Below are positions 12,701 to 43,640 of a stretch of 64,000 bases of DNA, one piece after another. Every line of letters starts with the position of its first letter. Positions within the stretch are counted from its first letter, which is position 1. This stretch comes from an uncultured Pseudomonadota bacterium (GTDB lineage: Bacteria; Myxococcota_A; UBA796; SXON01). A program made the translations under genes and the position numbers. The DNA lies in the NCBI GenBank assembly GCA_903885375.1, contig CAISIK010000064.1, positions 456 through 64,455 of the forward strand. The letters are read 5' to 3'. The notes under the pieces are model-generated. The model made no database searches. It was not told the origin of the DNA and worked only from the letters and a program-made list of their open reading frames with translations.

Positions 12701-13011
12701 GGACCGTAGGCCGCGATCAGGTCGAAGTGGCCGCGGGTGCAAAGCCCGGGGCCGCTCGGGTGATCGGGATTGCCTTCCACGCCGACCACACGGCCGTCGG
12801 TGTTGCGGGCGACCAGGCCGCAGGCCGTGGCACACCCGTTGCACAACGAGGCGTAGTAGGTGGCGAGCCCCGGCTGCACGTTCTCGGGGTTCACGACATA
12901 GGGGAGCACCTCTTCCTGAGGCACCTTGTAGTCGTAGGCGCAGGCCGCCGCGGTGGCCGAGGTGGCAACCGCGCCTGCCTTGAGGAAGTCGCGGCGGTTC
13001 AGTCCGTCCAT
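9796..13011 (-). CDS. actB: alternative complex III ActB (fused molybdopterin-like and 4Fe-4S domains)
   Basis: 1071-aa ORF. Tat signal NRRDFLKAG. Ferredoxin-type clusters CNGCGACQIAC, CQHCAHAPCEGVCP and CVGTRYCANNCP. His-rich C-terminal tail. Confidence 0.9.
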
Positions 13012-13022
13012 TGTGGCTCCGG

Positions 13023-13700: not shown

Positions 13701-13745
13701 CTTTCCTCCAGCCTGAGAGCCGGTGGGACGGAGGGGGGAGTGGGG

Positions 13746-13771
13746 GCCGCCCCCCTAATCCGGGGGGCGGC
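13746..13771 (-). terminator. perfect 10-bp GC hairpin between the cytochrome c gene and actA
   Basis: GCCGCCCCCC (13746-13755) pairs with GGGGGGCGGC (13762-13771) across a 6-nt loop. No U-tract follows on the transcribed strand, so it may be an attenuator or stabiliser rather than a full terminator. Confidence 0.35.
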
Positions 13772-13793
13772 GCTTCACAAGGGGGAGACGGTG

Positions 13794-14300
13794 CTACTTG
13801 CTGCGGAGCTCGGCGTCGATGTACGCGAGGACTTCCCACGATTGATCCTCGGTCAAGCCGAGGGGGGCCATCGCGGTGCTGGCGATGCCGTTCATCACGA
13901 TCCACTGCTTCGTACCGATCGGGGTGGCTTCCCAGCGCTCCTTCCAGTTGAACTGGGCGGGCTTCTGGGGGAGCGCGGCTCCGGCGATGCCATCGCCCGC
14001 GCCGGTGGCGCCGTGGCAGGTGGCGCACTTGAGGTATTGCTCCTTGCCGGCGGCGATCGCGGCCGGATCACCAGCCTTCGGGTTCGGGCGCGCATCGGCG
14101 CCGGCGGCCTTGGCCTTCTCGTAGGCGGCGGCGGCCAGCTCGGTGGCCGTGTACGGGCCCGTGGGCGCCGGCGCGGGGGCGGCGACGGGCGGGGGGGGCG
14201 GCGGCTCGGCCGGCTTCTCGGCGACGGGGGGCGCGACGGGCTTCGGAGCTTCTTCGGCGCCGCAAGCGACCAGCATGGCGAATGACAGGACGGTGACCAT
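13794..14300 (-). CDS. class I c-type cytochrome lipoprotein
   Basis: 168-aa ORF. Lipobox LVAC, a Pro/Ala-rich tether, a single CATCH heme motif and a distal Met region. Confidence 0.85.
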   Translation of the reverse strand: MVTVLSFAMLVACGAEEAPKPVAPPVAEKPAEPPPPPPVAAPAPAPTGPYTATELAAAAYEKAKAAGADARPNPKAGDPAAIAAGKEQYLKCATCHGATGAGDGIAGAALPQKPAQFNWKERWEATPIGTKQWIVMNGIASTAMAPLGLTEDQSWEVLAYIDAELRSK

Positions 14301-14360
14301 TTGATGACTCCCTTTACGCGCGCCGCGATTAGCCCGCTTCGCGGCGGCTTGCCACGCCCG

Positions 14361-14552
14361 CTAGAGATAGCCGACCGGGCGGAGGGAGTACATCGCTGAC
14401 ATCAGCGCGTTGAAAGCGGACTCTTCGTCGTCGATGCCTTCGGTTCCTTCGATGGCGGCGAGGACCTCCTCGATGGGGTAGCCGCGGAGGGTGGCGAGCG
14501 CCGCCTCTTCCTCGATGATGCGGGCGGCCGTGGCGGCGTCGAAGGTGAACAT
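14361..14552 (-). CDS. small acidic hypothetical protein (63 aa)
   Basis: ORF with strong G/C bias at third codon positions. No recognisable motif. Confidence 0.4.
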   Translation of the reverse strand: MFTFDAATAARIIEEEAALATLRGYPIEEVLAAIEGTEGIDDEESAFNALMSAMYSLRPVGYL

Positions 14553-14639
14553 GGGTTTCCGGGGGTGGAGCCGCCTAACCGGCGCGGCCCGTACCGATGG
14601 GCACTCGGGGCGATTAGCGGGGAAACCACGGAGGGCACC

Positions 14640-15053
14640 ATGCCCGGTTTCTGGATGATGCTCGCCTGCGTGGCCGCCGCGGTCGATCCCGCGCCGCCCT
14701 CTCCCCCCTCGCCCGTCGAGGTCGTGGCCGACGACGTCCCGCCTCCGGCTCCTCCGGTGCCTTCCATGCCCTCCGCCGTCGCCGAGGCGCGCATCGAAGG
14801 CCCCTCAACCCCGGGCGAGTGTGGCGCGGACGGCGACTGCGTGGCCACCGGCTGCGCCTCCGAGGTTTGCGTGGCGGGCCCGCGGGCCGGCGAGATCATC
14901 ACCACCTGCGAGGTGCTGCCCATCTTCAGCGAGCTCAGCGCCTGCGGCTGCCATGAAGGCGTGTGCAGCTGGACGAGGGTTCCCGGCGCGCGCGAGCTCG
15001 GCGCGCCGCGCACGCTCCCCGTGCGGGTGGTTGGTGGGGGCGGTGGGACTTGA
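14640..15053 (+). CDS. eight-cysteine lipoprotein
   Basis: ORF 14565-15053 trimmed to ATG 14640 (MPGFWMMLAC). Pro-rich tether, then 8 Cys (CGADGDCVATGCASEVC ... TTCE ... CGCHEGVC). The last 22 nt are antisense to the tRNA-Leu gene. Confidence 0.55.
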   Translation: MPGFWMMLACVAAAVDPAPPSPPSPVEVVADDVPPPAPPVPSMPSAVAEARIEGPSTPGECGADGDCVATGCASEVCVAGPRAGEIITTCEVLPIFSELSACGCHEGVCSWTRVPGARELGAPRTLPVRVVGGGGGT

Positions 15054-15117
15054 ACCCACAAGGGTATACACCCGGGGGATTTTGAATCCCCTGCGTCTGC
15101 CATTCCGCCACGCCCCC
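15032..15117 (-). tRNA. tRNA-Leu (anticodon CAA), type II with long variable arm, CCA encoded
   Basis: Hand-folded cloverleaf. Acceptor GGGGGCG/CGCCCCC, anticodon stem GGGGA/TCCCC, loop TTCAAAA, 15-nt variable arm, T-arm GTGGG-TTCAAGT-CCCAC, 3-prime ACCA. Confidence 0.95.
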
Positions 15118-23832: not shown

Positions 23833-24487
23833 CCCGGACACGCTCCGCGACATGGCCGCCCGCCTGGGCGAGGCGGACCGCGACGAGATGGCCATTCCCA
23901 GCTACCTCCACCCCAACCCCGCGCTGCGGTGGATGGCCTGGCGGCGGGTGGAGGTAGTGGCCCGGCTCCTGCGCGAGACCTGCCCCGAAGGGGGGTGCGT
24001 GCTCGACTTCGGGTGCGGCACCGGGGTCCTGTTCGAGGCCGCGCTCGAACGCGCGGGGTCGGTGATCGGCGTCGACCTCGTGCTCGGTGCCGCCCGGCAC
24101 TGGAAGGACAAGCAGAACCTCGCCCGGGTGTCGTTGATGACGCCGGCGGAGGCGATGGCCGCCGTGCCCGACGCGAGCGTGGATGTGGTGGTGGCGGCCG
24201 AGGTGCTGGAGCACATCGAAGACCCGGCGGAGGTGCTGGCGTTCTTCCTCAGGGTGCTGCGCCCCGGTGGCGTGCTGCTCGTGAGCCTCCCGACCGAGGG
24301 CCGGCTCTACCGCCTCGGGCGCCGGCTCGCGGGCTTCAGCGGGCACTACCACGACCACAACGCTGCCGTGGTGGCCGCGCGCATCGAGGCCGCCGGCTTC
24401 GAGCTCCGCACGGCCGGGCACATCCCGCTGCCGCCGCCCGCGGCCATCTACTTCGTTGCCACCTACCGCCCCGGCGCCCGGCCATGA
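23822..24487 (+). CDS. class I SAM-dependent methyltransferase
   Basis: 221-aa ORF with motif I VLDFGCGTG and VVVAAEVLEHI. Overlaps both of its neighbours. Confidence 0.85.
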   Translation: MRIDPDTLRDMAARLGEADRDEMAIPSYLHPNPALRWMAWRRVEVVARLLRETCPEGGCVLDFGCGTGVLFEAALERAGSVIGVDLVLGAARHWKDKQNLARVSLMTPAEAMAAVPDASVDVVVAAEVLEHIEDPAEVLAFFLRVLRPGGVLLVSLPTEGRLYRLGRRLAGFSGHYHDHNAAVVAARIEAAGFELRTAGHIPLPPPAAIYFVATYRPGARP

Positions 24488-27069
24488 CCGTCCCCAACCG
24501 CGCGTCGCCGGCCCCGCCCTTCGGCGCCGGCGGCCTCTTCCTGCTGCTCGTCGCCACCCTCGGCGCCCGGGGCTGGGCGGCGTGGTTCCTCCGCTGGCGC
24601 AACCTCGACGATGGGCGGGTGCTGGAGCTCGCCCGCAACGTCCGGGACGGTCAGGGGCTCGTGAGCTCGGTCAGCGGCGCCGCAAACCCCGCGATCGTGT
24701 TGTCGGCTCCGTCCGACGTGCCTCCGCTGTGGCCCTGGGTTCTGGGCATGCTCGGGCGCACGCACGACTTCCAGGAGCTCGCCCAGTGGCTCCCGCTGGG
24801 ACTGTACGGGCTCGCCATCGTGGCCGCATGGATCGGGGGCCGCGCGATGCGCCCGGGGGCGATCGTGCCGTCGTTGAGCCCCCGCGTGCACGGCGGCCAC
24901 GTGGCGGCCGTGCTGGTGGCCTTCGAGCCTTCCTTTCTCGCGGGAGCCGCGCAGGCGGGGACGGTGGGGTTCGCCTTCTTCGTGCTCACCCTCTACCTCG
25001 CGCGACTCGCCGTTCGGCGTGGGCGAGCCGGGCTCCTCCATGGCTTCGAGGAGGGCGTGTGGCTGGTGTTGCTGGCGCTGGCGGCGCCGCCGTTCGCGAT
25101 CCTCGCGCTTGGCGTGGTGTTGTGGCGCGTGCTGGGATTGGTGAGGGGGCCGGGGCGCGTGAGCCGGGGGCTGACGTCTGGGGCGCTTCTGGCTGGCGCG
25201 GCTGCCACCTGGATGGGATGGACCGCGGCGGTTGGCACGCCCTCGGTCGAATGGGCGTTCGACGCTGAGCGGGCCGCGGCCGTACCGGACGCGGCGGGGA
25301 TGGTGATGGCGCTCGGCCTCGGTGCGGGCACGTGGATGGTGCTGGGCGCGCTCGGCCGGAAGGGGCTCCTCGCCGTGGGGGCGGCCGTCGCCGTCGGCGT
25401 GCAGGTGGCGCGCGGTGGGGGCGTGATGGTGGAGTCGGCCCTCGTGGCACGCGACCTGGCGGCGCAACCGGATCGTCACGTGGGCCTCGTGGCGTGGCTC
25501 AAGCAGCACACCGAGGGCAAGGGCACCACCGCTGTCCTGATGGACGAGGAGACCGCGATCCGGATCGGCTGGCGCCTCAAACAGCACGCGCTGCAGGGCA
25601 TCGATCGGGACATGGACTTCGCGAGGGTCCAGATGCTCGCCACCGCCCGGAAGGCGGCGTACATCATCCACGCCGGGCCGCCCGAGGACTGGCGCTTCCG
25701 TCGCACGAGCGCCGGCCGCCTGGAGCAGGCCTTCACGCTGCGCACGGACTCGCCCGATGGGTACACGATCCTCGAGGCGCGGCCCGCCCCCGTGGCGCAG
25801 ACGCCCCCCGCCGGGAAGGTGCTGCTCATCGGCGTGGACGGAGGCTCCTGGAAGGTGATGGGCCCGCTCGTGGCGGCGGGCGAGCTGCCCACCTTCGCGC
25901 GCCTCTACCGGGAGGGTGCGTCCATGGTGGAGTTCGACACGATGGAGTCCCAGGACTCCCCCGTGGTGTGGACCAGCGTGGCCACCGGCCGACGGCCGAA
26001 GGACCACGGGGTGAAGGACTACACGGAGGAGGTGGCGGGCGTGGGCAAGGTGCCCATCACCAGCAACAGCCGCAAGGTGCCGGCCATCTGGAACGTGGCC
26101 ACGGCGGCGGGCCGCACCGTGGAGGTGGTCAACTGGTGGGCGAGCTGGCCCGCGGAGCCCGTAAACGGCGTCATCCTGAGCGATCACGCCAATCCGGCGG
26201 CGGCCGGCTGGATGGCCGGCAAGTACTTCGACGCCGACACCGAGGCGCTGAAGGCCCGCCTGCAGGACACCTTCCCCGGCGAGCTCGCCGCCACGCTGGC
26301 CCCCTATTGGATCGCCCCCGAGGCCTTCCCCTTGGCGGACTTCACGGCGCGCTCTGGCCTCACGCCGGCCCAGGTGGAGCAGCTGGTGGCGGCCCCGTAC
26401 AACGAGCGCACCGCCTACTCCTGGCTGAAGACCTTCTACACGCTGGACGAGCCGCACAAGCGCATCGCGGTCGACCACCTGCGCTCGGCCCCGGCCGACC
26501 TCACGATGGTCTACCTCCGCGGGCCCGACCCGGTGCAGCACTACGCATGGAACCTCGTGGAGCCCTGGCTCTACGCCACCCCGCCGGCCACGCTCGAGCG
26601 CGACCGGGGCCTCGTCGAGGCCACCTACCGGTACACCGACAGCTTCGTGGGCGAGCTCATCGAGGCTGCCGGGCCCGACACCACCGTGATCGTGATGAGC
26701 GACCACGGCGCCGAGCCCTGCTCCTACGCCGTGGGCAAGAACTCGAAGAAGCGGCCGGGTTGCCATCGGAGCACCGCCAAGGGCATCCTGTTCATGACGG
26801 GGCCCGGGGTGAAGGCGGGCGGGCGGATCACCCATGCCAGCCCCATGGACATCGCGCCCACGCTCGCCTGGCTTGCCGGCCTCCCGGTCTCCCGGGAGAT
26901 GCCGGGCCGGGTGCTCAGCGAGGCCTTCAGCTGGGAGGCGGCGGCCGCCATGGAGTTCGTGCAGGTGGACGACTGGGGCGACCGCGTGAAGGCCGCCGAG
27001 CCAACCACCGCCTCGCCGGCGGATGGCCAGATGCTGGAGCAGCTGCGGGGGCTCGGCTACATCGAGTAG
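24484..27069 (+). CDS. fusion of a polytopic membrane domain and an alkaline-phosphatase-superfamily phosphodiesterase domain
   Basis: Starts at ATG 24484 (ATGA overlap). About 11 hydrophobic segments come first. The AP-superfamily part has LLIGVDGGSWKV, WTSVATGRRPKDHGV and VMSDHGAEP, like type I phosphodiesterases. Confidence 0.8.
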   Translation: MTVPNRASPAPPFGAGGLFLLLVATLGARGWAAWFLRWRNLDDGRVLELARNVRDGQGLVSSVSGAANPAIVLSAPSDVPPLWPWVLGMLGRTHDFQELAQWLPLGLYGLAIVAAWIGGRAMRPGAIVPSLSPRVHGGHVAAVLVAFEPSFLAGAAQAGTVGFAFFVLTLYLARLAVRRGRAGLLHGFEEGVWLVLLALAAPPFAILALGVVLWRVLGLVRGPGRVSRGLTSGALLAGAAATWMGWTAAVGTPSVEWAFDAERAAAVPDAAGMVMALGLGAGTWMVLGALGRKGLLAVGAAVAVGVQVARGGGVMVESALVARDLAAQPDRHVGLVAWLKQHTEGKGTTAVLMDEETAIRIGWRLKQHALQGIDRDMDFARVQMLATARKAAYIIHAGPPEDWRFRRTSAGRLEQAFTLRTDSPDGYTILEARPAPVAQTPPAGKVLLIGVDGGSWKVMGPLVAAGELPTFARLYREGASMVEFDTMESQDSPVVWTSVATGRRPKDHGVKDYTEEVAGVGKVPITSNSRKVPAIWNVATAAGRTVEVVNWWASWPAEPVNGVILSDHANPAAAGWMAGKYFDADTEALKARLQDTFPGELAATLAPYWIAPEAFPLADFTARSGLTPAQVEQLVAAPYNERTAYSWLKTFYTLDEPHKRIAVDHLRSAPADLTMVYLRGPDPVQHYAWNLVEPWLYATPPATLERDRGLVEATYRYTDSFVGELIEAAGPDTTVIVMSDHGAEPCSYAVGKNSKKRPGCHRSTAKGILFMTGPGVKAGGRITHASPMDIAPTLAWLAGLPVSREMPGRVLSEAFSWEAAAAMEFVQVDDWGDRVKAAEPTTASPADGQMLEQLRGLGYIE

Positions 27070-27175
27070 GGGCATCGGTGCGGCGAGAGCCTCGCGCGCA
27101 CCCGGTCGCCCGCACGTCGAGGCGGCGCGCCGCGAACCACCTCAGGTTGTTGCCGTGAATATGTTCGGCGTGGGG

Positions 27176-27206
27176 TTGACAAAACTTTGGGGGGGGGGCG
27201 TATCCT
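27176..27206 (+). promoter_or_regulatory. candidate sigma-70-type promoter with a G10 tract in the spacer
   Basis: TTGACA (27176-27181), a 19-nt spacer containing G10, then TATCCT (27201-27206). GAGGA (27220-27224) precedes ATG 27229. Confidence 0.4.
27189..27198 (+). repeat. homopolymeric G10 tract
   Basis: Ten consecutive G. This is the longest homopolymer I found by eye in the window. Confidence 0.9.
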
Positions 27207-27228
27207 TGCCGTTCACCCTGAGGATTTC

Positions 27229-27981
27229 ATGTCTTGTTCCACGACCTTCGGCCCCACACAGAAAACCCTTGTCGCGACCTCCACCACGCTTCAGTACGAG
27301 TGGATGGGAGGGTGGGAGCTCGCGATCGGCGTCACCGCGCTCAAGGCGGTGATCAAGCGTCGCACTGCAACCGCCTTCCAGGCTCAGTTCGCGATCCAGA
27401 CCGCACCGGTGCGCACCGACAAGCCGAACGCGCCCGTGCCGCTGGGCACGCTCACCTCGGGCGAAGGCGAAACCTGCTCCACCGTGATTGACCTCACCAG
27501 CTACACGTCGGGCAACTTCTGGATTCGGGTGGGTGTGGCCTACTCGGCAACTTCGGCGACTGTTGGGAGCTGCGATGTCACGTTCACCGGCGGCCTCTCG
27601 CGTTGCGGTCGGTCGCTGGGGGTGCAGGTGTTCACGCTGTCCACCCTGAGCACGACCAACGCCTACCAGCCGATCACGGGCTGGCAGCCGGCGCTCGACC
27701 TCGAGGTGATCAAGGCGGCGATCGTGACCACGGGGATCATCGGCAACTTCCGGTTCCGGCTGGCTTACCGTCGTGCCACCACCAGCCAGGAGGTGCCCGG
27801 CGCGTGGTCGACTGACCTCACCTCCGAGTGGAGCCAGAACGGCGAAGCGGCGCTGAGTGACACGCCCTTGCCTAGCGTCGGCGCCGAGATGTGGGTGCAG
27901 ATCGGCATTCAGTACTACCTCTCCACCGGCAGCGCGCTCGGTCAGGCCACCGTGAGCGTAGCGCTCGCGGGCAAGCGGTGA
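27229..27981 (+). CDS. hypothetical tandem-duplicated beta-rich protein (island 1, gene 1)
   Basis: 250 aa from ATG 27229, no signal peptide. Two homologous halves (see findings). Codon usage is less GC-biased than the backbone. Confidence 0.65.
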   Translation: MSCSTTFGPTQKTLVATSTTLQYEWMGGWELAIGVTALKAVIKRRTATAFQAQFAIQTAPVRTDKPNAPVPLGTLTSGEGETCSTVIDLTSYTSGNFWIRVGVAYSATSATVGSCDVTFTGGLSRCGRSLGVQVFTLSTLSTTNAYQPITGWQPALDLEVIKAAIVTTGIIGNFRFRLAYRRATTSQEVPGAWSTDLTSEWSQNGEAALSDTPLPSVGAEMWVQIGIQYYLSTGSALGQATVSVALAGKR

Positions 27982-29459
27982 CGCCGGGGCAGACGTCGGG
28001 CGTCAGCGCAGGCGCGGGACCGGGGGAATCGGGAGCTGACGCCTTTCTCGGTCAGGCCTATCGAGCGTGGATGCTCGACGAGGCGGGGCGACAGTTTTCG
28101 CACGGTCCGACCTCGGCCGAGGTACAGGAGGCCATGCACGCTGTCGGTCCCCCACCTTCCGTGCTGGCCGAGGGAGTGCTGGCCGTGGTGGAGCAGGGCC
28201 CGAACGTTCAGCCCACCGTGGATGTCTGGATCAGCGCCGGGCCGCGTTCGTCGGTGAACTGGCTTGGCCAGGCGCTGCCGGCGGGGGAGGAGATCAGCTG
28301 CGACCAGGGGAGCACCGAGAGCTGCCGGATCTATCGCCTGCGCCTCAACATTCTGGCCCGCACCGCCACGGTCACCAAGGTGCAGGACCTCACCGGGATG
28401 GGCATGGGGTCGGTTCAGCCGGCGGTGGATGCGAGTGGGAGGCAATTGGCTACGGTAATCAACCGAGGGAAGTCGGCGAACGGAAACTATCCAGCCGCCG
28501 TCGGGCTTCTGCTCGATGACGGCGGCGGGTGGCCGATCTTCCTGCGCGAGCCGGTGGGCCCTTCCGCTCGCCGACCCGCGAAGCCGACGTTCTGGGGTGC
28601 CAAGCGAGTGCTGTGGACGTCGAACGTCGGGGGTGAGCTCGATGACAACAGCCCAAGTTGGTGGTGGGCGAACCTGATGCAATCGAATCTTGCTTCGGGT
28701 TCGGCTCCCAGCGTATTGCTGGGCGGTCCCGAGGGGGAGAACAGCGACAGCAACCCACCGCCGCCCTGCGAGGCCAACCCAGATTGGCCGAGCGCCGACT
28801 GTGTGAGCTGGCGGGATGCCCAGGTTCACCCCAACCCGGCGGCGTTGAGCCATCTGGTAGCCGCGGAATGGGTCACCGTGTTCGGCCGCCACGGTGTCGA
28901 CCCGCTCGCCGCCGAAGGCAGGCCGATCGTGGCGCGGCTGCCCGATGGGTCCGCCATCCAGGAGTTCGACCTCGGCAACGGCAACGAGGGGGACTCGATT
29001 GTGGGCTGCCACCATCCCGCCTGGAGCATCACGGGCGGGGAGATTGCCTGTACGAGGGAAAAGTCCTTTGATGACACGGTCGGTCTTGAACTCGACGTAC
29101 ACGGCCTTTACGGCTTCCGCTTCCCAAACTTTGGGCGTTGGCAGAACCAAGGCGAGGTGATCAGGAGCACCGACGTTCGTGGCGATCCCGATTTCCCCCA
29201 CTTTCACGGGCTTGCCTACTCGGGTAACGACCATCCTGTCCTCAGCTACAAATACGCCACATGGGTAGCCTCCGACCGTTGGATAGCCGCCACCGTTTTC
29301 ATCACCCAGGGCGGCTCGCACAACGTCCTGATGAGCCGGGTGGTGCTGTTCGACACCACCGGAGCAGAGGCTCCCTTGGATCTGGTCGAGTTCGTCGAGG
29401 ACGCAGAGGGGGCCACCCGCGGCGAGTGGCGGGCGGTGTCCAGCGAGGCGCGGCGATGA
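27978..29459 (+). CDS. hypothetical protein with degenerate TolB/PD40-like beta-propeller repeats (island 1, gene 2)
   Basis: The in-frame GTG at 27978 overlaps the upstream stop (GTGA). Trp/Gly-rich repeats such as HHPAWSITGGEIACT and ATWVASDRWIAAT. Start uncertain. Confidence 0.55.
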   Translation: MTPGQTSGVSAGAGPGESGADAFLGQAYRAWMLDEAGRQFSHGPTSAEVQEAMHAVGPPPSVLAEGVLAVVEQGPNVQPTVDVWISAGPRSSVNWLGQALPAGEEISCDQGSTESCRIYRLRLNILARTATVTKVQDLTGMGMGSVQPAVDASGRQLATVINRGKSANGNYPAAVGLLLDDGGGWPIFLREPVGPSARRPAKPTFWGAKRVLWTSNVGGELDDNSPSWWWANLMQSNLASGSAPSVLLGGPEGENSDSNPPPPCEANPDWPSADCVSWRDAQVHPNPAALSHLVAAEWVTVFGRHGVDPLAAEGRPIVARLPDGSAIQEFDLGNGNEGDSIVGCHHPAWSITGGEIACTREKSFDDTVGLELDVHGLYGFRFPNFGRWQNQGEVIRSTDVRGDPDFPHFHGLAYSGNDHPVLSYKYATWVASDRWIAATVFITQGGSHNVLMSRVVLFDTTGAEAPLDLVEFVEDAEGATRGEWRAVSSEARR

Positions 29460-30463
29460 CCGCGCGGGTGGTCCTCTTCGGTGTGCTGGTAGGGTCCTGC
29501 TCCTGTGTGCCACCCAACGACGCGGACACCGGGGGCCGCAGCAAGAGCGGCGAGGGGAAGGATTCCGGGGACACCGGCGAGCAGACCGCGCGCACCTGCC
29601 CCGACGAGCCGTGGATTGATGTGCAGGTGTCGTGGGACTCCGCGTGTGGTCTCCACGAGGGCGGCTGCATCGAGTGTTGGGGGCGCAATGAAAACGGCGG
29701 CTGGGGGTTGTACGACCCGCCCGATCTGGTAGCGGCTTCCATGACCATCGCCGAGGTGAGCTACGAAGATACCGTCGAGGATGGTACGTATCCCGGCGGA
29801 TGCGCCATCACGCCTGAAGGAGACATGGAGTGTTGGGGAGCGGGGGACTACGGGAGCACGCATCCCACGTCGGATGTCGCGGCGGTGGAGTTGTCCGACT
29901 ATGGCGCGATCGGGGTGCTCACGCTCAATGGCGAGTTGTTTCTCACCAGCCACGGGAAATATTCGCACCTTCCTGTCCCGGACCTCACTGGCCCCTTCGG
30001 CGTGGGTAACTATCGGGTGGCCGGTGTGACCGGCGGGCGATTGTTGTCATGGAAGGGGCAAGGTGGGAGCGAAGAATTGGAGCTGGTTGCGGACTTCGGA
30101 CTGGTTGCTGATTGGCGGTGGTTGCGACACCTTGGCGAGCTTCACATGGTTGGCGCGAGGTTGGATGGCGCCCTGGTGATCTTTGAGGCGAGCCAATACC
30201 ACGGGGATGCCGTTGAGATAGCCCCTCCGGGCTCCGAGTGGGTCGACCTGTTTGCATACCCCTACATCGTCCAGGACGCCGACGGCTACCTCTTCTGGCT
30301 CGAGGATGTGGCGGCCGGGCCCGTGGTTCCCGATCCGATGATGCGCTTCGACATGCGGCAGGGCGGCGATGGTTGCGGCGTGACCTTCGATGGCCGCGTC
30401 CAGTGCATCGGGCCGTTCGCCGCGGAATACCCCCCGCCAGGAAGCTACGTGGTGGGTCCGTAG
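29456..30463 (+). CDS. RCC1-like repeat lipoprotein (island 1, gene 3)
   Basis: ATG 29456 overlaps the upstream stop (ATGA). Lipobox VGSCSC and a DTG tether. Recurrent CWG-type motifs (IECWG, MECWG, VQCIG). Confidence 0.6.
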   Translation: MTARVVLFGVLVGSCSCVPPNDADTGGRSKSGEGKDSGDTGEQTARTCPDEPWIDVQVSWDSACGLHEGGCIECWGRNENGGWGLYDPPDLVAASMTIAEVSYEDTVEDGTYPGGCAITPEGDMECWGAGDYGSTHPTSDVAAVELSDYGAIGVLTLNGELFLTSHGKYSHLPVPDLTGPFGVGNYRVAGVTGGRLLSWKGQGGSEELELVADFGLVADWRWLRHLGELHMVGARLDGALVIFEASQYHGDAVEIAPPGSEWVDLFAYPYIVQDADGYLFWLEDVAAGPVVPDPMMRFDMRQGGDGCGVTFDGRVQCIGPFAAEYPPPGSYVVGP

Positions 30464-30502
30464 GATGGACGGGGAGACGTGAGCCCCGCCCCCCCCGCCT
30501 CC

Positions 30503-32074
30503 CTACCAGCGCGTGCGCGCCGCGGCCGACAGCACCGTGACCGTGCCCCCGCCGAGGTTGTCGGCGGCGAGGAGGTGGCCGCCCTGGAGGAGGAGGGCGG
30601 GCTGGAGCTGCCACACACGCTTCAGCGGGACATCGCCGAGCTGGATGGCCCAGTCGATCTCGGTGCCGAGGTCGTAGCCCTCGGTGACCTCGCCGAGGTG
30701 GTTGGTGGGCACGCCGCCGTTGCGGGCCGTGGTGAAGGGCTGCTGAACGGGGTTGGTGTTCCAGGCCAGCAGCACGCCCGCCTTCAGGCTGAGCCACTTC
30801 TTCGGGGTGACCTCCACGATCGGCTGCACGAACGCCGCGTGGCGGAAGGCGCCCTCGGCCACCAGCGACTCGGCGCCATCGGGCGCCCCGCCGCTGTGCG
30901 CGGGGTCCTGGAGCTGCGCGTAGGCTGCCGCATCGACCGCGCCGAGCACCTCGTCGAACAGCACGCTGCCCACGTCGAAGTCGCGATCGAAGGTGAAGTC
31001 GTTGCTCGCGCGGTCGTCGGGGTTGGTGTCGCCGCTGGCCCAGCCGCCGCGGGCGGCCACGCGGAGCGGCACGGCCTTCAGGCGGGCCTCGGCGAGGCCG
31101 GTGACACCGGCCGCCTGCACCGTGAGGCCCTCGCGGCTGGAGTAGCTCTGCCCCCGCGTGGTCTCGCCGAAGATGCCGGCGCCTTCTACCGCGAAGCGGA
31201 GGTCGGCCCCCCGCAGCGGGACGGGCAGATCGCCGAACGCGTCGACGACGTGCGCCTGGGTGGTGCGCACGGCGTCGAGCTCGGTCTGGTCGCGGTAGAC
31301 GTAGTACACGCCGGTGCGCGCCCCCTCCCGCTCGCCGTAGATGGCCGAGGCCACGAGCTGCCAGGCCTCCTCGCCGCCTTCGAGGGGGCTCCAGTCGGCG
31401 AGCTCATCCTCCACCACGCGGTCGCCGGCCACCACGAGGGTCAGCGGCTTGCCCACGAGGGGGCGCGTGGCCACGCGGAGGCGGATCACCCGGTCGCCGA
31501 AGTCGTTGCGGCCGAACTCCGGGTCGGTGGCGCCGTCGTTGGCCACCATGCCGAGGCCCCAGCGGCTGGTCACGAGGCCGCCTTCGAGGGCCACGGGCCC
31601 CACCCGGCCGCCGATGCTCAGGCGCCGCGCGGTGAAGGCGTCGGGGCGCGTGAGGAGGTCGAGGGATTCGCGGTGGCGCGCATCCTCCGTGCCGCGGATG
31701 TCCCAGGCATCGCCGGCGAGCTGGCCATCGAAGAGGTCCCACTCCGTCCTGGCGTCAAAACCCTTCCAGGAAAAGCCGACGCCGGCGCGGAGGCGGGAGT
31801 CGAGGACCAGGGATTGGCCGAGGGTGTTGCCTTCGTCGTCTACCTGCAGGTCGGCGGGCGGGAGGCTGGCGATGAGCCGCGCTTCGCCCGTGGTGGAGAA
31901 CCATTGGGGGAGGCCGCGACTCTCGGCGAGCGCCGCGGCGGCCTCGGCGGGGGTTTGGGCGCCGGTTGCATCCTTCTCGGCGGCGTGGCCCGGATCGACC
32001 AGACCAAGCATCAGGATCGGGGTCATTCGCCACCCCCCGTGTCGCCTTCGGGCAGGGCGGGGAGCCAGGCGCAC
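30503..32074 (-). CDS. putative outer-membrane beta-barrel protein
   Basis: 523-aa ORF with an Arg-rich, then hydrophobic N-terminus. Alternating beta-type sequence ending in Trp. An alternative ATG at 32026 overlaps the upstream stop (ATGA). Confidence 0.6.
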   Translation of the reverse strand: MRLAPRPARRRHGGWRMTPILMLGLVDPGHAAEKDATGAQTPAEAAAALAESRGLPQWFSTTGEARLIASLPPADLQVDDEGNTLGQSLVLDSRLRAGVGFSWKGFDARTEWDLFDGQLAGDAWDIRGTEDARHRESLDLLTRPDAFTARRLSIGGRVGPVALEGGLVTSRWGLGMVANDGATDPEFGRNDFGDRVIRLRVATRPLVGKPLTLVVAGDRVVEDELADWSPLEGGEEAWQLVASAIYGEREGARTGVYYVYRDQTELDAVRTTQAHVVDAFGDLPVPLRGADLRFAVEGAGIFGETTRGQSYSSREGLTVQAAGVTGLAEARLKAVPLRVAARGGWASGDTNPDDRASNDFTFDRDFDVGSVLFDEVLGAVDAAAYAQLQDPAHSGGAPDGAESLVAEGAFRHAAFVQPIVEVTPKKWLSLKAGVLLAWNTNPVQQPFTTARNGGVPTNHLGEVTEGYDLGTEIDWAIQLGDVPLKRVWQLQPALLLQGGHLLAADNLGGGTVTVLSAAARTRW

Positions 32075-35031
32075 GAAGCGTCCTCGAGGCAGGGGTCGTC
32101 GACCACCTCCTGCCCGTTGTTCTGGAAGTAGGTGGCGATCTGCATGACCATGTAGGTGCTGATGTCGAAGGGGTCGTCGGGGCGCGGGATGGCGAAGCCG
32201 TGGCTCCCGGTGGGGGTCGTGTACGGGAGCCGCATGGCGCTGGTGCCCGCGCTAGTGGGGACGGTGAGGCGGAGGGGGGCATCGCTGGGGGCGCCGGTGC
32301 CGTCCATGCCGTCGTCGAGATCGTCGGCGTCGAACAGGCAGCTGGCGCCGTTGGCATCGACGTAGGGGCCCCACTCCTCGAGGCCGGAGACCACGCCCCG
32401 GTCGATGAGGTAGCGGTCCACCGTCATGCCGTAGCGGTCGTCCACCACGGTGTCGTCGATCCAGCCGGCCGCGCGGGCGAGCGCGATCTCGCTGTTCACG
32501 CTCACGATCGTGTCGCCCGGGGTGGGGACGAGGAGCATGTTGCGCGGGACGCCGTTGGTTGGCGATTCCGTGAGCATGCGGGCGTAGCCGACCGGGTCGC
32601 CGCCCTCGAGCACGGCGCCGAAGATGAAGGCGGTGCGGCGCAGGTCGGGGGTGCCCCGAATCTTGCCGAGGCCCTCGGCCGCCGCCACGAGCGTGCTTCC
32701 CGCGGCGTAGGTGGCCCCCTGGAAGGACACCTCGTCCTGCCAGTCCTCGACCACCGCCACCTCCTCGCCCTCGGCGGTGAGGAAGGTCAGCCGGAGACGG
32801 TCGCCGGCTTCGGCGTTGTCGGGGAGCACGTAGCGGGCGCCGGCCTGGGCGCCGTTTTCGGGGATGCCGGCGAGCGCGCGTTTTTCCCAGGCGCTCGCGG
32901 CGTCGGCGGGGATGCCGAGCCGGAAGCGGCCGTCGGTGGGCACCAGACCCTCGCGGACCTCGCCATTGTCGAGGTTTTCGATGCGGATGCGGCCCCCGGC
33001 CGGGAAGGAGGGGAGGGTGGCCACGGGCAGGGACACCATGTCGGTGACGGAGTTCACGATCTGCACGATCTGCACGCTGCCATCGTCGGCCGGGTAGCCC
33101 ACGAACAGCGGCGACATCAGGCGGCCGTGCATGGCCTCGACCGCGCCGCCGATCTCGGTGCGCAGGGCCACGTCGAGGAGGCCGGCGCCGGCCACGATCG
33201 GGCTCCAGGCAGTGACCTCATCGATGATGCCCGCGGCCACCGCGGTGTTGATGCCGCCCAGCGAGCCGCCGATGACGTACTGGCGCGCGTCGGGGCCGCC
33301 GATGTCGGCGGTGCCATCGCCATCCCAGTCGCAGGAAACGGCCTTCTTGCCATCGGGGAGGGTCATCGTGCCCTGGCCGCACGCCATGGTCGCATCCACC
33401 ATCCGGGCATGGTCGAGCGCGCCCTGGCGCACCATGTCGCGGGTGTGGAAGGCGTCGGCCGTCCACTGGTCGCCGCCGGAGTCGCCGATACCGTCGTTGT
33501 CGAGGTCGCGGTAGCGGGAGTCCTGGAGGTGCGTGAGGAAGCCCTCGAGGCCCTTGCCCTTGAGCACTGCCTGGATGAGCGCGGCTTCGTCGGCGCTCAC
33601 GGTGGGACCGTGGCCCGGGTAGTCGAACGCGCAGGCCGCCATGCCCACCCGGTTGAAGGCCCAGGCAAAACCGAGGAAGTCGAAGCGGCTGGAGCCGTAG
33701 CCGTGCCCGAAGGACACGACCGGCGCGGGCTGGGCGACATCCTTCGGCAGCACGCAGGTGAAGACCACGCGCTCCTCGCGGGCACGGGCGCGACCGGCGC
33801 CGAGGTCCACATCCCAGAGGTCGTCGCTGTCGTCGGCCGCGGGCCAGGCGGCCTGCGTGCCGTCGAGGTCGGCCATGAAGTTGGGGGTGGTGAAGCTGCC
33901 GCCCACCACGTAGCTCCCGAAGGCCTCGTAGTTGGCGATGAGCGCGTCGGCGCCGGCGCCATCGAAGAGGCCGAGCTCCACCAGCGTGTCGAGCAGGACC
34001 GACACGGGGAGGGTGTGGCTCGGCACGCCCGGCATCTCGTGGACGGGCTCGGCACTGAGCACGCCGGCCGGGAACTGCTCGGCGAGGGAGGCGAAGGCCC
34101 CTTCGCCGAGGAGGCCTTGACGCACGGCGCGCAGGTCCCCCGAGACATCGCCGGTGGTGAAGGTCCAGGCGTAGGCGACGTCGCTGACGGAGAGATCGAG
34201 CTCGGGGAGCAGGTCCTCGAGCGGGCGGAGGGTTTCGGTCTGCTTGAGGTGGTTCACCCAGGGCCAGGGCGAGCGCACGGGCTCGCCGTCCGCCCCCACG
34301 AGGCGGTTGGTGAGGACCACGGCGTAGGTGGTCTTCTCGCGCAGGGGGCGCTGGGGGCGCCAGATGAGGGTGTCGGTCTGGCGCTCGTAGAAGGTGAGCA
34401 GGTCGGCGCGCGGATCGCCGCCCTCCGGGTACACGTTCGGCACGTCGAGGACCCCGTCGTTGTCGGTGTCCTCCCCCCAATCGAGCGAGCCGTTGCCGTT
34501 CACATCCTCGGCCACGGTGTCGAACACGAGCGTAGGCGACGCGAAGCGGCTGTCGTTGGGGAAGTAGCGGTTGGGGTCGGGCACATCGAGCGGGAAGCGG
34601 CCCTCACCGAAGTCGAGCGGCACGGCCTTGCCGTAGTCGGGGGAGCCCTCGGTGACGTCGATGACGTAGACCGCATCGTCGGCGAAGGCGGCCTCGCCGC
34701 GCTTCTCGTCATCGCGGTGGCGCAGGGCCACGTTGTCGAGGTCGAGCGGCGCATCGAAGCGGACGGCCATCGGGGCGTACACGCCGAAGCCGGTGAGGGT
34801 GTTCATCTTCTGGCGGGCGTTGCGCTCCATCTGCGTGGGCGCATCGGTGGGGATGTTCAGGCGCAGGCCGGTGGTGCTCGTGACATCGGTGCGCGTGGCC
34901 AGATCGTTGGGGAAGGGCAGCTCGGGGAGCGGCTGGGCATCCCAGTCGATCACCACGACGGGACCGGACCCTTCGGGGGTAGCCCGGAGCCCTTCCGGGT
35001 AGGGGGCGCAGGCGAGGAGGGCGAGGATCAT
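32023..35031 (-). CDS. large secreted lipoprotein with alpha/beta-hydrolase (lipase/esterase-like) core
   Basis: 1002 aa. Lipobox LLAC. SFGHGYGSSRFDF and the nucleophile elbow IGGSLGG (GxSxG). Confidence 0.7.
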   Translation of the reverse strand: MILALLACAPYPEGLRATPEGSGPVVVIDWDAQPLPELPFPNDLATRTDVTSTTGLRLNIPTDAPTQMERNARQKMNTLTGFGVYAPMAVRFDAPLDLDNVALRHRDDEKRGEAAFADDAVYVIDVTEGSPDYGKAVPLDFGEGRFPLDVPDPNRYFPNDSRFASPTLVFDTVAEDVNGNGSLDWGEDTDNDGVLDVPNVYPEGGDPRADLLTFYERQTDTLIWRPQRPLREKTTYAVVLTNRLVGADGEPVRSPWPWVNHLKQTETLRPLEDLLPELDLSVSDVAYAWTFTTGDVSGDLRAVRQGLLGEGAFASLAEQFPAGVLSAEPVHEMPGVPSHTLPVSVLLDTLVELGLFDGAGADALIANYEAFGSYVVGGSFTTPNFMADLDGTQAAWPAADDSDDLWDVDLGAGRARAREERVVFTCVLPKDVAQPAPVVSFGHGYGSSRFDFLGFAWAFNRVGMAACAFDYPGHGPTVSADEAALIQAVLKGKGLEGFLTHLQDSRYRDLDNDGIGDSGGDQWTADAFHTRDMVRQGALDHARMVDATMACGQGTMTLPDGKKAVSCDWDGDGTADIGGPDARQYVIGGSLGGINTAVAAGIIDEVTAWSPIVAGAGLLDVALRTEIGGAVEAMHGRLMSPLFVGYPADDGSVQIVQIVNSVTDMVSLPVATLPSFPAGGRIRIENLDNGEVREGLVPTDGRFRLGIPADAASAWEKRALAGIPENGAQAGARYVLPDNAEAGDRLRLTFLTAEGEEVAVVEDWQDEVSFQGATYAAGSTLVAAAEGLGKIRGTPDLRRTAFIFGAVLEGGDPVGYARMLTESPTNGVPRNMLLVPTPGDTIVSVNSEIALARAAGWIDDTVVDDRYGMTVDRYLIDRGVVSGLEEWGPYVDANGASCLFDADDLDDGMDGTGAPSDAPLRLTVPTSAGTSAMRLPYTTPTGSHGFAIPRPDDPFDISTYMVMQIATYFQNNGQEVVDDPCLEDASCAWLPALPEGDTGGGE

Positions 35032-41563: not shown

Positions 41564-42109
41564 ATGCTGGACCGCTCCGGGGTTCACGCTCCGGGGTTCA
41601 TCATGCGTATGTGGACTGGTAATGGTGCCTTTCAATGGGAAGCTTCCCGCAAGTGGGAACTGAACGCGGCCTCCGAATTCTGCAGAGGCGATGGCGCGGT
41701 GCTCATTCCTGGGGGGCTTCAATCGTTCAGCGTGTTTTTCCGCCGAGCCAGTCAGTCGGCGGGGACATTCACCCTCAAGGTGCACACAACTCCGATCTAT
41801 ACGCAGCTGCTCGATACCGAGGTCACCTCGAACAACGCGGCCGCTACCCTGCTTCCGCTCGCCGTACAGCCGCTCACCGGCTTGGAGATGACCTCCACTG
41901 GGGCCAAAGTGTTTGGGGCGAGGATCGACCCTTCGCAAGCCATGGGCACCGTGCTGTTCTGGGAGGTGGCCAACACCGTTGCCGGTGGCGTTCTGGTCGG
42001 CGACATCTACCTCGTGGCCAATCATCAAGGCGCAGTAGCGAACCCGAGGTTCGCTCGGACCGTGGACGACCCCGACGGTCAGGGCGGCACCAACCCGCGA
42101 ATGCGGTGA
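41564..42109 (+). CDS. hypothetical single-domain beta-rich protein, apparent paralog of the 27229 product (island 2, gene 1)
   Basis: ORF 41438-42109 with candidate ATG starts at 41564 or 41603. Shares the QxE...WEL and RR...F.L...TP motifs with the island 1 protein. Confidence 0.55.
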   Translation: MLDRSGVHAPGFIMRMWTGNGAFQWEASRKWELNAASEFCRGDGAVLIPGGLQSFSVFFRRASQSAGTFTLKVHTTPIYTQLLDTEVTSNNAAATLLPLAVQPLTGLEMTSTGAKVFGARIDPSQAMGTVLFWEVANTVAGGVLVGDIYLVANHQGAVANPRFARTVDDPDGQGGTNPRMR

Positions 42110-42118
42110 GGGGCGATC

Positions 42119-42460
42119 ATGGCCTACATCGACAGGCCGAGCAAGGAGTTGCTGACCTACTACCGCGGCACGGTTTCTGCGCTGAAGGTGGAGCAGTACG
42201 ACGAGCGGGACCAGATTTGGTTCATCCTGGACTTGACGGAAGAAACGGCCGCGCTGCCTCCATTCGGCTACACGCTGCCGGTCGGGCACGAGGTGCACTA
42301 TCTGTGCATCTACCGCGATATCGGCACCACGGTCGCGCTGGCCCAGCTGCAGTTGTTGCGCACGGCGCTGATGGAGCGGGCCGAGGTGGGGGTGTGGGCG
42401 CTGCGCGACCTCGCAACGACGACGCAATTTGTCTACTCCGTCTGCTTGTATCCGGGATAA
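42119..42460 (+). CDS. hypothetical protein (113 aa; island 2, gene 2)
   Basis: ATG 42119 lies 9 nt after the previous stop, behind a GGTGAGGGG purine run. No family recognised. Confidence 0.5.
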   Translation: MAYIDRPSKELLTYYRGTVSALKVEQYDERDQIWFILDLTEETAALPPFGYTLPVGHEVHYLCIYRDIGTTVALAQLQLLRTALMERAEVGVWALRDLATTTQFVYSVCLYPG

Positions 42461-42749
42461 GCAGAATTTTGTTATGGGAGCGGGCGGGCGTAACGGCAAG
42501 TGACCAGCGTGGAGCGCGGCCCGGTCGAGGCGGGGGACTGATGGCGGGTGGCCAACTCGGATTGCGGCGACGGGAATGGTGGGTGGGCCTGAGTGCGGGC
42601 GTGGCGTACCGCAGGGCCAAAGTGTTTGCCGCAGCACGTCCGCATCTCCCAGTCCGTTCCGCGCGGCACGTCCGGCAGGACAGGGCTGACGAAGCGAGGG
42701 AGGGGATACAGGCGGGCGCCGTGACCGGGCTTCGAGCCTACTCGAGTAG

Positions 42750-43640
42750 ATGGAGCGGCCGAGGGCTCCTCGTTTGGGGCGAGCGACGGCCGGTGAGCCA
42801 CCGGGCGCCCGCGAAGGTGCGGCCCGCGCGGAGGTGCCGGTGAGTACGGGCAGTCCGGGGCTTCCTCTGGTCGCGGTGCGAGTTCGGCCGACTCTCTTCG
42901 TCGGAGACGCGGGCTCGGCCAGTGCAAATGCGGTCGCCAAATGCAGCGAAATGATGCGGCTCACCACCACGGCATTTGCTCAGGCAGGAGTGGTTCTTGC
43001 CTGGGAAACACTGAGAATCGTCGAGAGTGCCACGATGGAGCGAGCCGCGAGCGGTCGCCAGTCGGCGTGGACGGAGGGGCAGTGCACGCCATCGGCGTCA
43101 TGGATGGACGTTTTCTTCATTGAGAACACCTACGCTGACGCCGACGCCGAGGTGTCGCCCTCGTCGGGTCGGCCGGAATTCCACGGAGTGACCCTTCACC
43201 CCGATCCGAGTGCCTCCCCTCCGCTCCTTGGCTGGGGCGTGTGGGTGTACTGGCAGGTCTCGACGTGGACCACCCTGGCTCACGAACTCGGGCATGCTTT
43301 CGGCCTGCCCCACGTCGATACAGGGAGCGGGTCATATTCGGAGACGATAGAGGAGTTTAGGCTTGACGATTACGCCTTCATGCCGTTCGAAAATGACACG
43401 GTGGGGGTGGGCTCAAACCTGATGATTCAGGGGACTGACAGCACAAGCGACCCCAGCGACTTCACTTGGACGCACGGTCAGGTGCTGTTGATGCGTCGGA
43501 CGCTCGCGTCGCGTGCGAGCCGGTGGGCCTTTGCTTCGTCCTATTGGCGAAGTTGGGGGGGGCGGGACACGCTCCCGGTCGGTTTCGTTCGGCTGCCTGA
43601 TTGCGTCAGCTTTCTGGGTGCCGAATGGGGGTGGCCGTGA
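42750..43640 (+). CDS. metzincin-type zinc metalloprotease (HExxHxxGxxH)
   Basis: HELGHAFGLPH motif. Start ATG 42750 or GTG 42840. No obvious signal peptide. Confidence 0.75.
   Translation: MERPRAPRLGRATAGEPPGAREGAARAEVPVSTGSPGLPLVAVRVRPTLFVGDAGSASANAVAKCSEMMRLTTTAFAQAGVVLAWETLRIVESATMERAASGRQSAWTEGQCTPSASWMDVFFIENTYADADAEVSPSSGRPEFHGVTLHPDPSASPPLLGWGVWVYWQVSTWTTLAHELGHAFGLPHVDTGSGSYSETIEEFRLDDYAFMPFENDTVGVGSNLMIQGTDSTSDPSDFTWTHGQVLLMRRTLASRASRWAFASSYWRSWGGRDTLPVGFVRLPDCVSFLGAEWGWP
43554..43562 (+). repeat. homopolymeric G9 tract inside the metalloprotease CDS
   Basis: Nine consecutive G, lying in the codons that read SWGGR. Second-longest homopolymer seen by eye. Confidence 0.9.

Follow-up and report, generated by a model that had tools for sequence, protein, structure and literature searches.

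A window of 64 kb from an uncultured bacterium (contig CAISIK010000064.1; by window we mean the whole stretch of DNA analysed) contains three overlapping genes, g1, g2 and g3, that form a rare but recurring unit and that have been exchanged between lineages much more recently than the surrounding backbone diverged. We read this trio, tentatively, as one allele in a broader class of small cassettes, exchanged by recombination and probably phase-variable in expression. In functional terms, it may be a phase-variable carrier, effector and envelope-immunity cassette, an assignment that we hold as possible rather than probable. This reading fits best because related loci combine a conserved head gene with exchangeable, signal-less second genes and with breakpoints located just inside those second genes, and because they also display envelope-located third genes, orphan fragments, a patchy distribution, recent exchange and a repeat in the promoter-like element upstream of the head gene.

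A rare three-gene unit and its recent exchange

An earlier note on this DNA, made from the sequence alone, had described three overlapping open reading frames (ORFs), and all three are present on the plus strand (Table 1). The junction sequences of g1/g2 and g2/g3, GCGGTGACGC and GCGATGACCG, carry the overlaps GTGA (27978-27981) and ATGA (29456-29459), respectively. The frame-specific GC content at third codon positions (GC3) supports the plus-strand frames, and not antisense ORFs, as the coding ones. With respect to the start of g2, the metagenome gene caller selects ATG 28071, whereas we favour GTG 27978, both because residues 19-31 (FLGxxYRAW), which lie upstream of the methionine at ATG 28071, are conserved in homologs and because the g2 start of these homologs likewise overlaps the g1 stop by 4 nucleotides (nt).

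The trio recurs, with the same gene order and the same 4-nt overlap of g1 and g2, in at least four unrelated gene neighbourhoods among related metagenome loci (designated here by L numbers). The copy in L010 is flanked by ketosynthases and a Ser/Thr kinase at one end and by a T2SSE ATPase at the other, that in L004-6 adjoins a PIN/PhdYeFM pair, that in L007 adjoins a PAS histidine kinase, and L019 carries the trio as well. Among these copies, identity to the window proteins is about 61-66% for g1, 36-47% for g2 and 31-36% for g3, a gradient that is typical of effector/immunity loci. A distant version, found in L012-15 beside a B12 radical-SAM gene, comprises a g2-like protein (24% identity) and an RCC1-like lipoprotein, and the pair is preceded by a homolog of g1, 125 amino acids (aa) long, whose match is to the N-terminal domain in the g1 family profile (36.8 bits). 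Linkage of all three genes is thus kept down to 24% identity in g2, which indicates that it is old.

The unit is also rare. A pattern scan of 185,579 species-representative genomes (one genome per species) returned no relative of g2 and a relative of g1 in one metagenome-assembled genome (MAG) only, and relatives of g2 amount to just five clusters among 5.8 billion proteins. No relatives of the trio were found in IMG/VR (three scans), in GenBank phages or among PLSDB plasmids, and a viral or plasmid origin was set aside on this account.

At the window's own chromosomal position, the trio is found in three contigs, L008 and L009 (99.7% identical to the window) and L031 (94.8% identical overall), and synteny is confined to very close relatives. 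Relative to L031, the trio is 99.3-99.7% identical while its flanks are 88-96% identical. Synonymous divergence (dS) shows the same difference: values are 0.12-0.28 for the flanking GT2, methyltransferase and phosphodiesterase-type genes and 0.005-0.009 for g1, g2 and g3. Exchange of the trio between lineages is therefore far more recent than the divergence of the backbone. In a sliding 200-nt profile, the nearly identical block spans the 3' end of the upstream gene, the promoter-like element and the trio, and it stops at the g3 stop codon (bounds accurate to within about 100 nt), with the backbone beside it being about 93-98% identical to L031.

As for the route of exchange, no integrase or transposase gene is adjacent to the trio and no flanking repeats were found in the window, whose only tRNA gene (15032-15117) is not near the trio; nor did we find an Rfam element or a notable terminator at the island. 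Given that these integrase, tRNA and repeat hallmarks are missing, transfer probably occurred by homologous recombination and not through a self-mobile element.

Base composition points in the same direction. The hand counts of G+C given in the earlier note, 35/60 at 27229-27288 and 43/60 at 24991-25050, are exact on recount, and the lower GC that they suggested extends to the whole island, which has 65.9% GC over 27229-30463 (3,235 nt), whereas the window as a whole has 70.9% and the flanking genes have 72-73%. In a windowed analysis, 1.5% of equal-sized windows are as low in GC as the trio block. GC3 is 0.86 for g1, 0.79 for g2 and 0.78 for g3, compared with a median of 0.91 over 40 window genes and with 0.93-0.94 for the immediate neighbours. 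The low GC of g1 is mostly an effect of first and second codon positions (GC1 0.55, GC2 0.57, GC3 0.86), and the deviation at third positions sits mainly in g2 and g3. The proposal that the trio is an acquired accessory module is consequently supported by its composition, its recurrence as a unit, its rarity and its recent exchange relative to L031; the genes are neither ubiquitous nor widely syntenic, their composition is atypical, and they have no clear housekeeping homologs.

Two observations on individual trio copies are recorded here. In L007, a perfect 300-nt direct repeat (1-300 and 3538-3837) brackets the trio and holds the 3' end of g3 together with a 59-aa ORF. Of its two copies, the left one sits at the end of the contig, and after it comes a 75-89% diverged version of the 3' region of the histidine-kinase gene. 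This repeat could stem from cassettes arrayed in tandem, from duplication of a target or from an error of assembly. Secondly, L010 has an MshEN+T2SSE gene (12756-14711) 280 nt downstream of its trio, and a T2SSE gene in L022 (2785-5275) ends 15 nt before a truncated g1 copy. The T2SSE linkage, seen at these two loci and neither in the window nor at the other loci, could be a hint of an export route or a coincidence.

Table 1. Positions in the window of the trio genes and of the features associated with them.
Feature	Position	Strand	Description
promoter-like element	27176..27206	+	TTGACA 27176-27181, 19-nt spacer, TATCCT 27201-27206
putative ribosome-binding site GAGGA	27220-27224	+	upstream of g1
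g1	27229..27981	+	250 aa, without signal peptide
g1 domain 1	about 27229-27600	+	beta-sandwich (jelly-roll-like) domain of ~123 aa
g1 domain 2	about 27601-27978	+	tandem duplicate of domain 1
g2	27978..29459	+	493 aa, without signal peptide
g2 C-H-H-x-x-W motif	29007-29024 (codons)	+	invariant in homologs
g3	29456..30463	+	335 aa, predicted lipoprotein
exchanged block	about 26,550..30,450		about 99-100% identity to L031 (sliding 200-nt profile)

The g1 family and its exchangeable partners

The description of the g1 product as a signal-less, duplicated, beta-rich protein, which the earlier note had offered, is borne out by structure prediction and profile comparison. Specifically, an AlphaFold2 (AF2) model built on 10 aligned sequences is all-beta and consists of two alike eight-strand units, with a predicted local distance difference test score (pLDDT) of 93.4 and a predicted template modelling score (pTM) of 0.86. 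The N-terminal and C-terminal halves of a 106-sequence family alignment also match each other in hhalign with a probability of 99.9% (E 2e-34). From the two-unit model and this half-against-half match it follows that g1 consists of a ~123-aa domain duplicated in tandem. A single-domain form is likewise found, as the 125-aa protein of L014.

In terms of structural relatives, Foldseek searches of PDB and BFVD returned generic tandem jelly-roll or beta-sandwich proteins only, with template modelling scores (TM-scores) of 0.20-0.37. These matches include the SIDT1 ectodomain, XepA, IBDV VP2, PRD1 P3, CBM22 tandems and PHM, as well as phage tail or receptor-binding proteins, PR772 P3 and the STIV turret protein. 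The predicted fold class is thereby supported, and a specific structural relative is absent among the PDB and BFVD matches. Such tandem jelly-roll proteins (the SIDT1 extracellular domain, PBSX XepA, CBM22, PHM and capsid/DUF2961 proteins) resemble the g1 model in having two consecutive eight-stranded beta-sandwiches and in the duplication of one domain, of which the single-domain form is known too. They differ from it in that TM-scores are 0.20-0.37 with root-mean-square deviations (rmsd) of 10-20 Å or more, in that the modelled domain arrangement of g1 matches none of them, and in that sequence similarity to g1 and a viral context are both lacking. Double jelly-roll capsid proteins themselves have cellular DUF2961 relatives (PMC8812541).

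At the sequence level, g1 has no match in Pfam, NCBIfam, PADLOC, PHROGs or PDB sequences; an NCBIfam match to an HK97-capsid model was discarded as noise (11.9 bits against a cut-off of 80). The family is nonetheless sizeable, since an exhaustive profile search recovers 494 cluster representatives with E≤1e-3, of which 127 reach E≤1e-30, and a word-indexed search gives 10 clusters. All named members are annotated as 'hypothetical protein', one of them from a Thermoanaerobaculia MAG (Acidobacteriota). The neighbourhoods of family members are mostly contigs of 1-2.5 kb, the one long contig known (56 kb, with the member MFA6958391.1) being that of the Thermoanaerobaculia MAG. About half of the members begin with M-x-C, and the residues conserved almost throughout are W, G, A, P, R and Q, which do not make up a catalytic-looking set.

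Variation on the g1 architecture is seen in several members. Three g1-family genes lie head to tail in L028 (1-2555), one of whose g1 members, P0107 (432 aa), has a C-terminal extension of ~170 aa that is shared by P0101 from the Thermoanaerobaculia MAG. In the member P0068, a Gly-rich GGSGY...P.V.F repeat is inserted in domain 2.

Although the second gene is g2 in the trio copies, the gene that follows g1 in other loci is unrelated to g2. It encodes HExxH proteins of 431 aa in L017, 413 aa in L024 and 397 aa in L020, a Cys-rich protein of 402 aa in L016 and a protein of 390 aa in L025. None of these five partner proteins has a signal peptide or a family match, and a signal peptide was never seen on g1 or on the second gene product across the loci. 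The only toxin-like signs among the partners are the HExxH motifs and a weak WLM match (E 0.007). The third gene, by comparison, carries envelope signals: it encodes a 190-aa lipoprotein in L020, a Dickkopf-like, Cys-rich lipoprotein of 194 aa in L017, FG-GAP lipoproteins in L025 and, in L016, what is predicted to be a small membrane protein of three helices, and in both L022 and L026 an FG-GAP lipoprotein directly follows the remnant of a deleted partner.

Pairs of close relatives reveal where the replacement of partners occurs. Between L016 and L020, identity is 94-96% across the upstream genes, g1 and the opening ~245 nt of the partner gene, and beyond that point the loci are unrelated; the two partner proteins share 80% identity over their first 91 aa and no relationship thereafter. 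In the pair L017 and L024, 92% identity extends ~58 nt into the partner, after which the partner products share only 39% amino-acid identity. A conserved N-terminus with an exchangeable remainder is accordingly a feature of these two pairs, whereas g2 of the window type diverges along its whole length. Displaced and reduced copies occur as well. A 3' fragment of g1 follows the third gene of L020 at the contig end, L022 combines a truncated g1 copy with remnants of the second gene and an intact lipoprotein gene, and g1 stands alone in L001, beside HTH_17 and transposase-like genes. In every locus, the genes after g1 have a lower GC3 than g1 itself. Downstream of the g1 cassette of L016, the contig ends (about 6950-7099) in a 21-nt tandem repeat that reads TLYPLPS in one frame.

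Regarding g2, further homologs are present in L004, L007, L010 and L019, each directly after a g1 gene, and a profile re-search yielded no additional ones. The earlier note had called this protein PD40-like, a label to be dropped, as the window g2 has no Pfam match at E≤10 and a single sub-threshold PD40 match (E 0.0096) appears in just one of seven g2 homologs, a distant one. No match was found in PADLOC, PHROGs or PDB either. The note had further held that the trio products lack a recognisable catalytic motif. That statement calls for a qualification, as g2 contains an invariant set of Cys, His, Asp, Lys-Tyr and Ser-Arg residues: in homologs that are 24-47% identical, C344-H345-H346-x2-W349, C358, D365, K425-Y426 and S453-R454 are invariant, and so is C116-R117-x-Y119. 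The AF2 model of g2 is unusable (pLDDT 35), only five homologs being available for the alignment.

For g3, the label of RCC1-like lipoprotein is acceptable, with the RCC1 match being marginal. A pattern test (a signal peptide ending in [LVI][ASTVI][GAS]C) identifies the lipobox L-V-G-S-C with Cys15 (codon 29498-29500), the N-terminal sequence being MTARVVLFGVLVGS-C. One RCC1_2 repeat (PF13540) is detected just at threshold (E 1.1e-4, 22.4 bits against a cut-off of 22), and residues 66-134 weakly match PDB chains of UVR8, an RCC1-fold protein (E 1e-4 to 1e-3). The RCC1-like repeats contain Cys. Homologs of g3 with 31-36% identity follow every g2 homolog, and each of them has a lipobox.

The repeat-bearing element upstream of g1 and the surroundings of the trio

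Homology between cassette copies of different genomes starts at a TTGAC(A/T) box and continues through a G-rich spacer to a TAnnnT hexamer. In the window, this spacer reads AAACTTT-G10-CG, and its G10 tract (27189-27198) is the longest homopolymer of the 64 kb. Judging from its sequence, the TTGACA/G10/TATCCT element appears to be a promoter that travels with the cassette. A consensus scan found no promoter with 16-18-nt spacing in the region of 27176-27206, as expected for an element whose spacer measures 19 nt.

The repeat varies among close relatives. The tract is G11 in L008 and L009, with one other mismatch in 310 nt, and G8 in L031 (a 95% identical strain), where the CG after the tract is absent and the flanks are conserved; the spacing between the -35-like and -10-like hexamers is thus 19 nt in the window, 20 nt in L008/L009 and 15 nt in L031. 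Other cassettes have G13 (L004-6), G11 (L007) and G11 versus G10 (L022 versus L023). Different repeat units are also used upstream of g1, including (GGTCGAT)x4 in L017 versus x3 in L024, (GTC)x5 in L016 versus x3 in L020, the latter between TTGCAG and TAGTAA, and a 15-nt tandem repeat in L030. Altogether, repeats occupy the equivalent place in five further lineages, and their length differs between close relatives in four lineages. Five G/C runs of at least 9 nt occur in ~200 kb of non-redundant loci, and every one of them falls within 120 nt upstream of a g1 start.

This pattern reads as the signature of a contingency locus, one in which changes of repeat length would switch expression. Homopolymers in promoter spacers are well known from porA and opc of Neisseria, the fim genes of Bordetella and hif of Haemophilus. 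The element upstream of g1 is like these loci in placing a G-run between -35-like and -10-like hexamers, in the variation of its length among near-identical strains, and in that related cassettes hold different repeat types at the equivalent place. It differs in that it occurs in environmental high-GC bacteria and not in host-adapted pathogens, in that its switching is putative, and in that no allele with the optimal 17-nt spacer was seen.

The surroundings of the trio are those of an ordinary chromosome, with genes for ValRS, an ACIII-like complex, SecD, PhoH and two-component systems in the window. Just upstream lies a glycan-type cluster that encodes a UDP-Glc dehydrogenase, a GT2, a methyltransferase and a phosphodiesterase-type membrane enzyme, the gene for the last of which is co-oriented with the trio and ends 159 nt before it. 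This phosphodiesterase/sulfatase-type gene (24463-27069) is itself variable. Its N-terminal membrane part (24600-25700) is 72-79% identical to L031, against 93-98% for the sequence on either side, and over the whole gene the ratio of nonsynonymous to synonymous divergence (dN/dS) is 0.32 with a dS of 0.28. The segment 24600-25700 is a second, independent hypervariable segment beside the island, and possibly a determinant of surface-glycan specificity.

Downstream, g3 and a 523-aa gene have convergent stops separated by a 39-nt gap (30464-30502), which holds the window's only C8 run (30489-30496) and no terminator-like hairpin. The minus-strand region 30503-35031 contains two large convergent genes, of 523 and 1002 aa, without a Pfam family. 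The first of these (30503-32074) had been presented as an outer-membrane gene, a label that is provisional, as the gene has only a weak TIGR04551 match (41 bits against a cut-off of 300). Further along, two plus-strand ORFs at 41635-43640 have the window's lowest GC3 (0.55 and 0.72) and about 65% GC, and the second of them gives weak matches to reprolysin-like metallopeptidases (E 1.5e-5, below cut-off). These putative gene calls may mark another atypical island.

Explanations for the cassette and their significance

The cassette reading that we tentatively favour can be set out as a mechanism. Each cassette would be headed by a conserved and abundant beta-sandwich protein of the g1 family, and a sigma-70-like promoter would move with the cassette, carrying a hypermutable repeat that alters the spacing between its -35 and -10 hexamers and so may switch the operon between expression states. 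The g1 protein would be made in the cytoplasm, with translational coupling to the second gene, and would act as a generic carrier, adaptor or scaffold for the second gene product. That product, here the signal-less g2 with its conserved Cys/His/Asp set, is the putative variable enzymatic effector; it would be exported by a route that the cassette does not encode and would exert its presumed toxicity in the cell envelope. The RCC1-like lipoprotein g3 would then be the cognate envelope partner that neutralises or receives the effector, an immunity-like role in which it may protect the cell.

Known polymorphic systems offer partial parallels. Orphan islands of the type VI secretion system (T6SS) consist of an Hcp/VgrG or adaptor gene (DUF4123, DUF1795, DUF2169), followed by an effector gene and then by an immunity gene. 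The likeness lies in a small conserved signal-less protein, a signal-less effector with an exchangeable downstream part and an envelope-located cognate that is often a lipoprotein, as well as in the conservation gradient, the breakpoints inside the effector gene and the displaced fragments. The differences are that g1 matches no Pfam family at E≤1 (Hcp, PAAR, VgrG and adaptors included) and gives only noise in NCBIfam, that no Hcp or tube folds are among its top Foldseek matches, and that the 64-kb window holds no T6SS genes and the trio no known toxin domain. The organisation of the trio may accordingly be called analogous to that of T6SS orphan effector islands, with membership in none of those families.

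A second parallel is provided by the myxobacterial sitBAI cassettes, which encode polymorphic lipoprotein toxins delivered by outer-membrane exchange (PMC5562445, PMC8546572). They too are small, polymorphic, horizontally spread cassettes with a lipoprotein, in high-GC bacteria of what is likely a similar group (the Myxococcota-like placement of our organism being inferred). In sit cassettes the lipoprotein is the toxin, whereas in the trio the lipoprotein, which is RCC1-propeller-like, is encoded by the last gene and the candidate effector lacks a lipobox. The trio showed no sequence relationship to the Sit proteins, in an analysis that included no search aimed at them. The Sit immunity protein, moreover, is cytoplasmic. 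The components of the trio are new, and its general behaviour resembles that of known polymorphic cassettes and contingency loci.

Several points weigh against a carrier, effector and immunity function. The trio proteins match no known toxin, immunity, secretion, chaperone or defence family, and the 64-kb window contains no secretion-system genes. Swapping of C-termini was not seen in g2 or g3, which always co-occur, as would fit an enzyme and its structural partner, and at 335 aa the beta-propeller-like lipoprotein g3 would be a large immunity protein. A docking helix common to all second-gene products (FLGQAYRAW, FRQQVLEVFGTP and similar) looked plausible by eye and is unsupported; we rejected it because a hidden Markov model of g2 N-termini scored real partner N-termini no better than shuffled sequences. 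With respect to switching, length differences of 1 nt in homopolymers may be sequencing or assembly errors, and the spacers seen (15, 19 and 20 nt) miss the 17-nt optimum, so that the ON state is not among them. The related loci, finally, are metagenome contigs, many of them short and some possibly chimeric.

The strongest competitor, which we consider somewhat unlikely, is a phase-variable envelope or surface module in which g1 would be the structural subunit, g2 a maturation or assembly enzyme with a Cys/His site and g3 an outer-membrane anchor or nucleator. The variation among loci would then represent antigenic or receptor diversification under phage or predator pressure and not a toxin/immunity conflict. 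This explanation accounts well for a g1 protein without invariant catalytic-type residues, for the strict co-occurrence of g2 and g3, and for the tandem paralogs (L028), insertions and C-terminal extensions of g1, which are usual for structural subunits; the host-like, high GC3 of g1 (0.86-0.95) further suggests high expression, and the trio adjoins a glycan-modification cluster that has a hypervariable stretch of its own. Promoter-repeat switching, too, is classic for surface structures, as in the contingency loci of Neisseria, Haemophilus and Bordetella. What such a module leaves unexplained is how g1 and g2, without a signal peptide or a known export signal, would reach the surface when no usher, secretin or other assembly machinery is linked to them. 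The second genes of other cassettes, which are mutually unrelated and enzyme-like, some with HExxH, also fit poorly with one assembly pathway, and the neighbourhood differs at each locus, so that the link to a glycan cluster is not conserved.

Decidedly unlikely, in our assessment, is a new system for anti-phage defence or surface exclusion, in which g1 would sense or mimic a phage structural protein, g2 would be the effector enzyme and g3 would block entry or serve as an anchor, with the cassette kept as a contingency locus because it is costly. The rare and patchy distribution, the atypical composition and the recent exchange all fit, as do the location of one copy beside a PIN/PhdYeFM toxin-antitoxin pair and that of a g1-only copy beside HTH_17 and transposase-like genes. 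The fold class of g1 is also that of viral capsid, tail-fibre and receptor-binding proteins, at low TM-scores only, and phase variation of defence genes does occur, as in phase-variable restriction-modification systems. Yet none of the 5,027 PADLOC models matched at E≤1 any of g1, g2, g3 and seven proteins of related loci (five partner genes and the single-domain g1-like and g2-like proteins of L014). Nuclease, NTPase, SIR2, TIR or similar domains are missing from the trio, the window has no other known defence genes, and envelope-located third genes would be unusual for abortive infection.

That the trio is an ordinary, vertically inherited part of the envelope-glycan cluster, its low GC coming from a Ser/Thr/Gly-rich composition, is highly improbable. 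The co-orientation with the phosphodiesterase-type gene 159 nt upstream, the synteny in three related strains or samples and the largely first- and second-position origin of the low GC of g1 are what this explanation has in its favour. The third-position deviation of g2 and g3 (0.78-0.79 against 0.93-0.94) is not covered by it, the trio occurs without the glycan cluster in every other lineage, and it has its own conserved promoter-like element. Above all, divergence from L031 is ~20-fold lower in the trio than in the flanks, and the dS values together with the identity profile largely refute vertical inheritance with the cluster. Least credible is an origin from a tailless virus, of which the trio would be a remnant or a domesticated part, with g1 as a small double jelly-roll capsid protein: the two tandem jelly-roll-like domains arising from duplication and the presence of PRD1 and PR772 P3, the STIV turret protein and IBDV VP2 among the Foldseek matches invite the idea, which we dropped because these are only generic matches of low TM-score (0.22-0.27 to double jelly-roll capsid proteins, rmsd about 15 Å), the vicinity holds no packaging ATPase, penton or other viral gene, relatives are absent from IMG/VR, GenBank phages and PHROGs, and the family is always in cellular contexts. 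The probability left beyond the cassette reading and these four alternatives we assign to none of them.

A bolder version of the cassette reading, which strikes us as quite unlikely, is that the g1 family constitutes an unrecognised and widespread system in which a single or duplicated jelly-roll-like protein, as common carrier or shell, serves interchangeable enzymatic cargoes and their cognate envelope proteins under stochastic promoter-repeat control. If true, this would provide a new delivery or packaging route for polymorphic effectors that is independent of the known secretion-system markers, and a case, in cells, of the duplication from single to double jelly-roll for which virus capsids are otherwise known.

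If the cassette reading itself is true, an unannotated family of hundreds of clusters, with a confidently predicted new two-domain arrangement, would join the systems of competition and envelope variation, and phase variation through promoter repeats would extend to environmental high-GC lineages, where it has hardly been described. The locus also supplies compact objects for experiment, namely a 3.2-kb operon, a candidate effector with an invariant Cys-His-His site, a candidate protector and an engineerable G-tract. Whatever its function, the trio, about 20 times less diverged than the sequence on either side, is a clean natural case of recombination specific to an island, and it shows that coherent biology is hidden in 'hypothetical' genes that are nearly absent from reference genomes.

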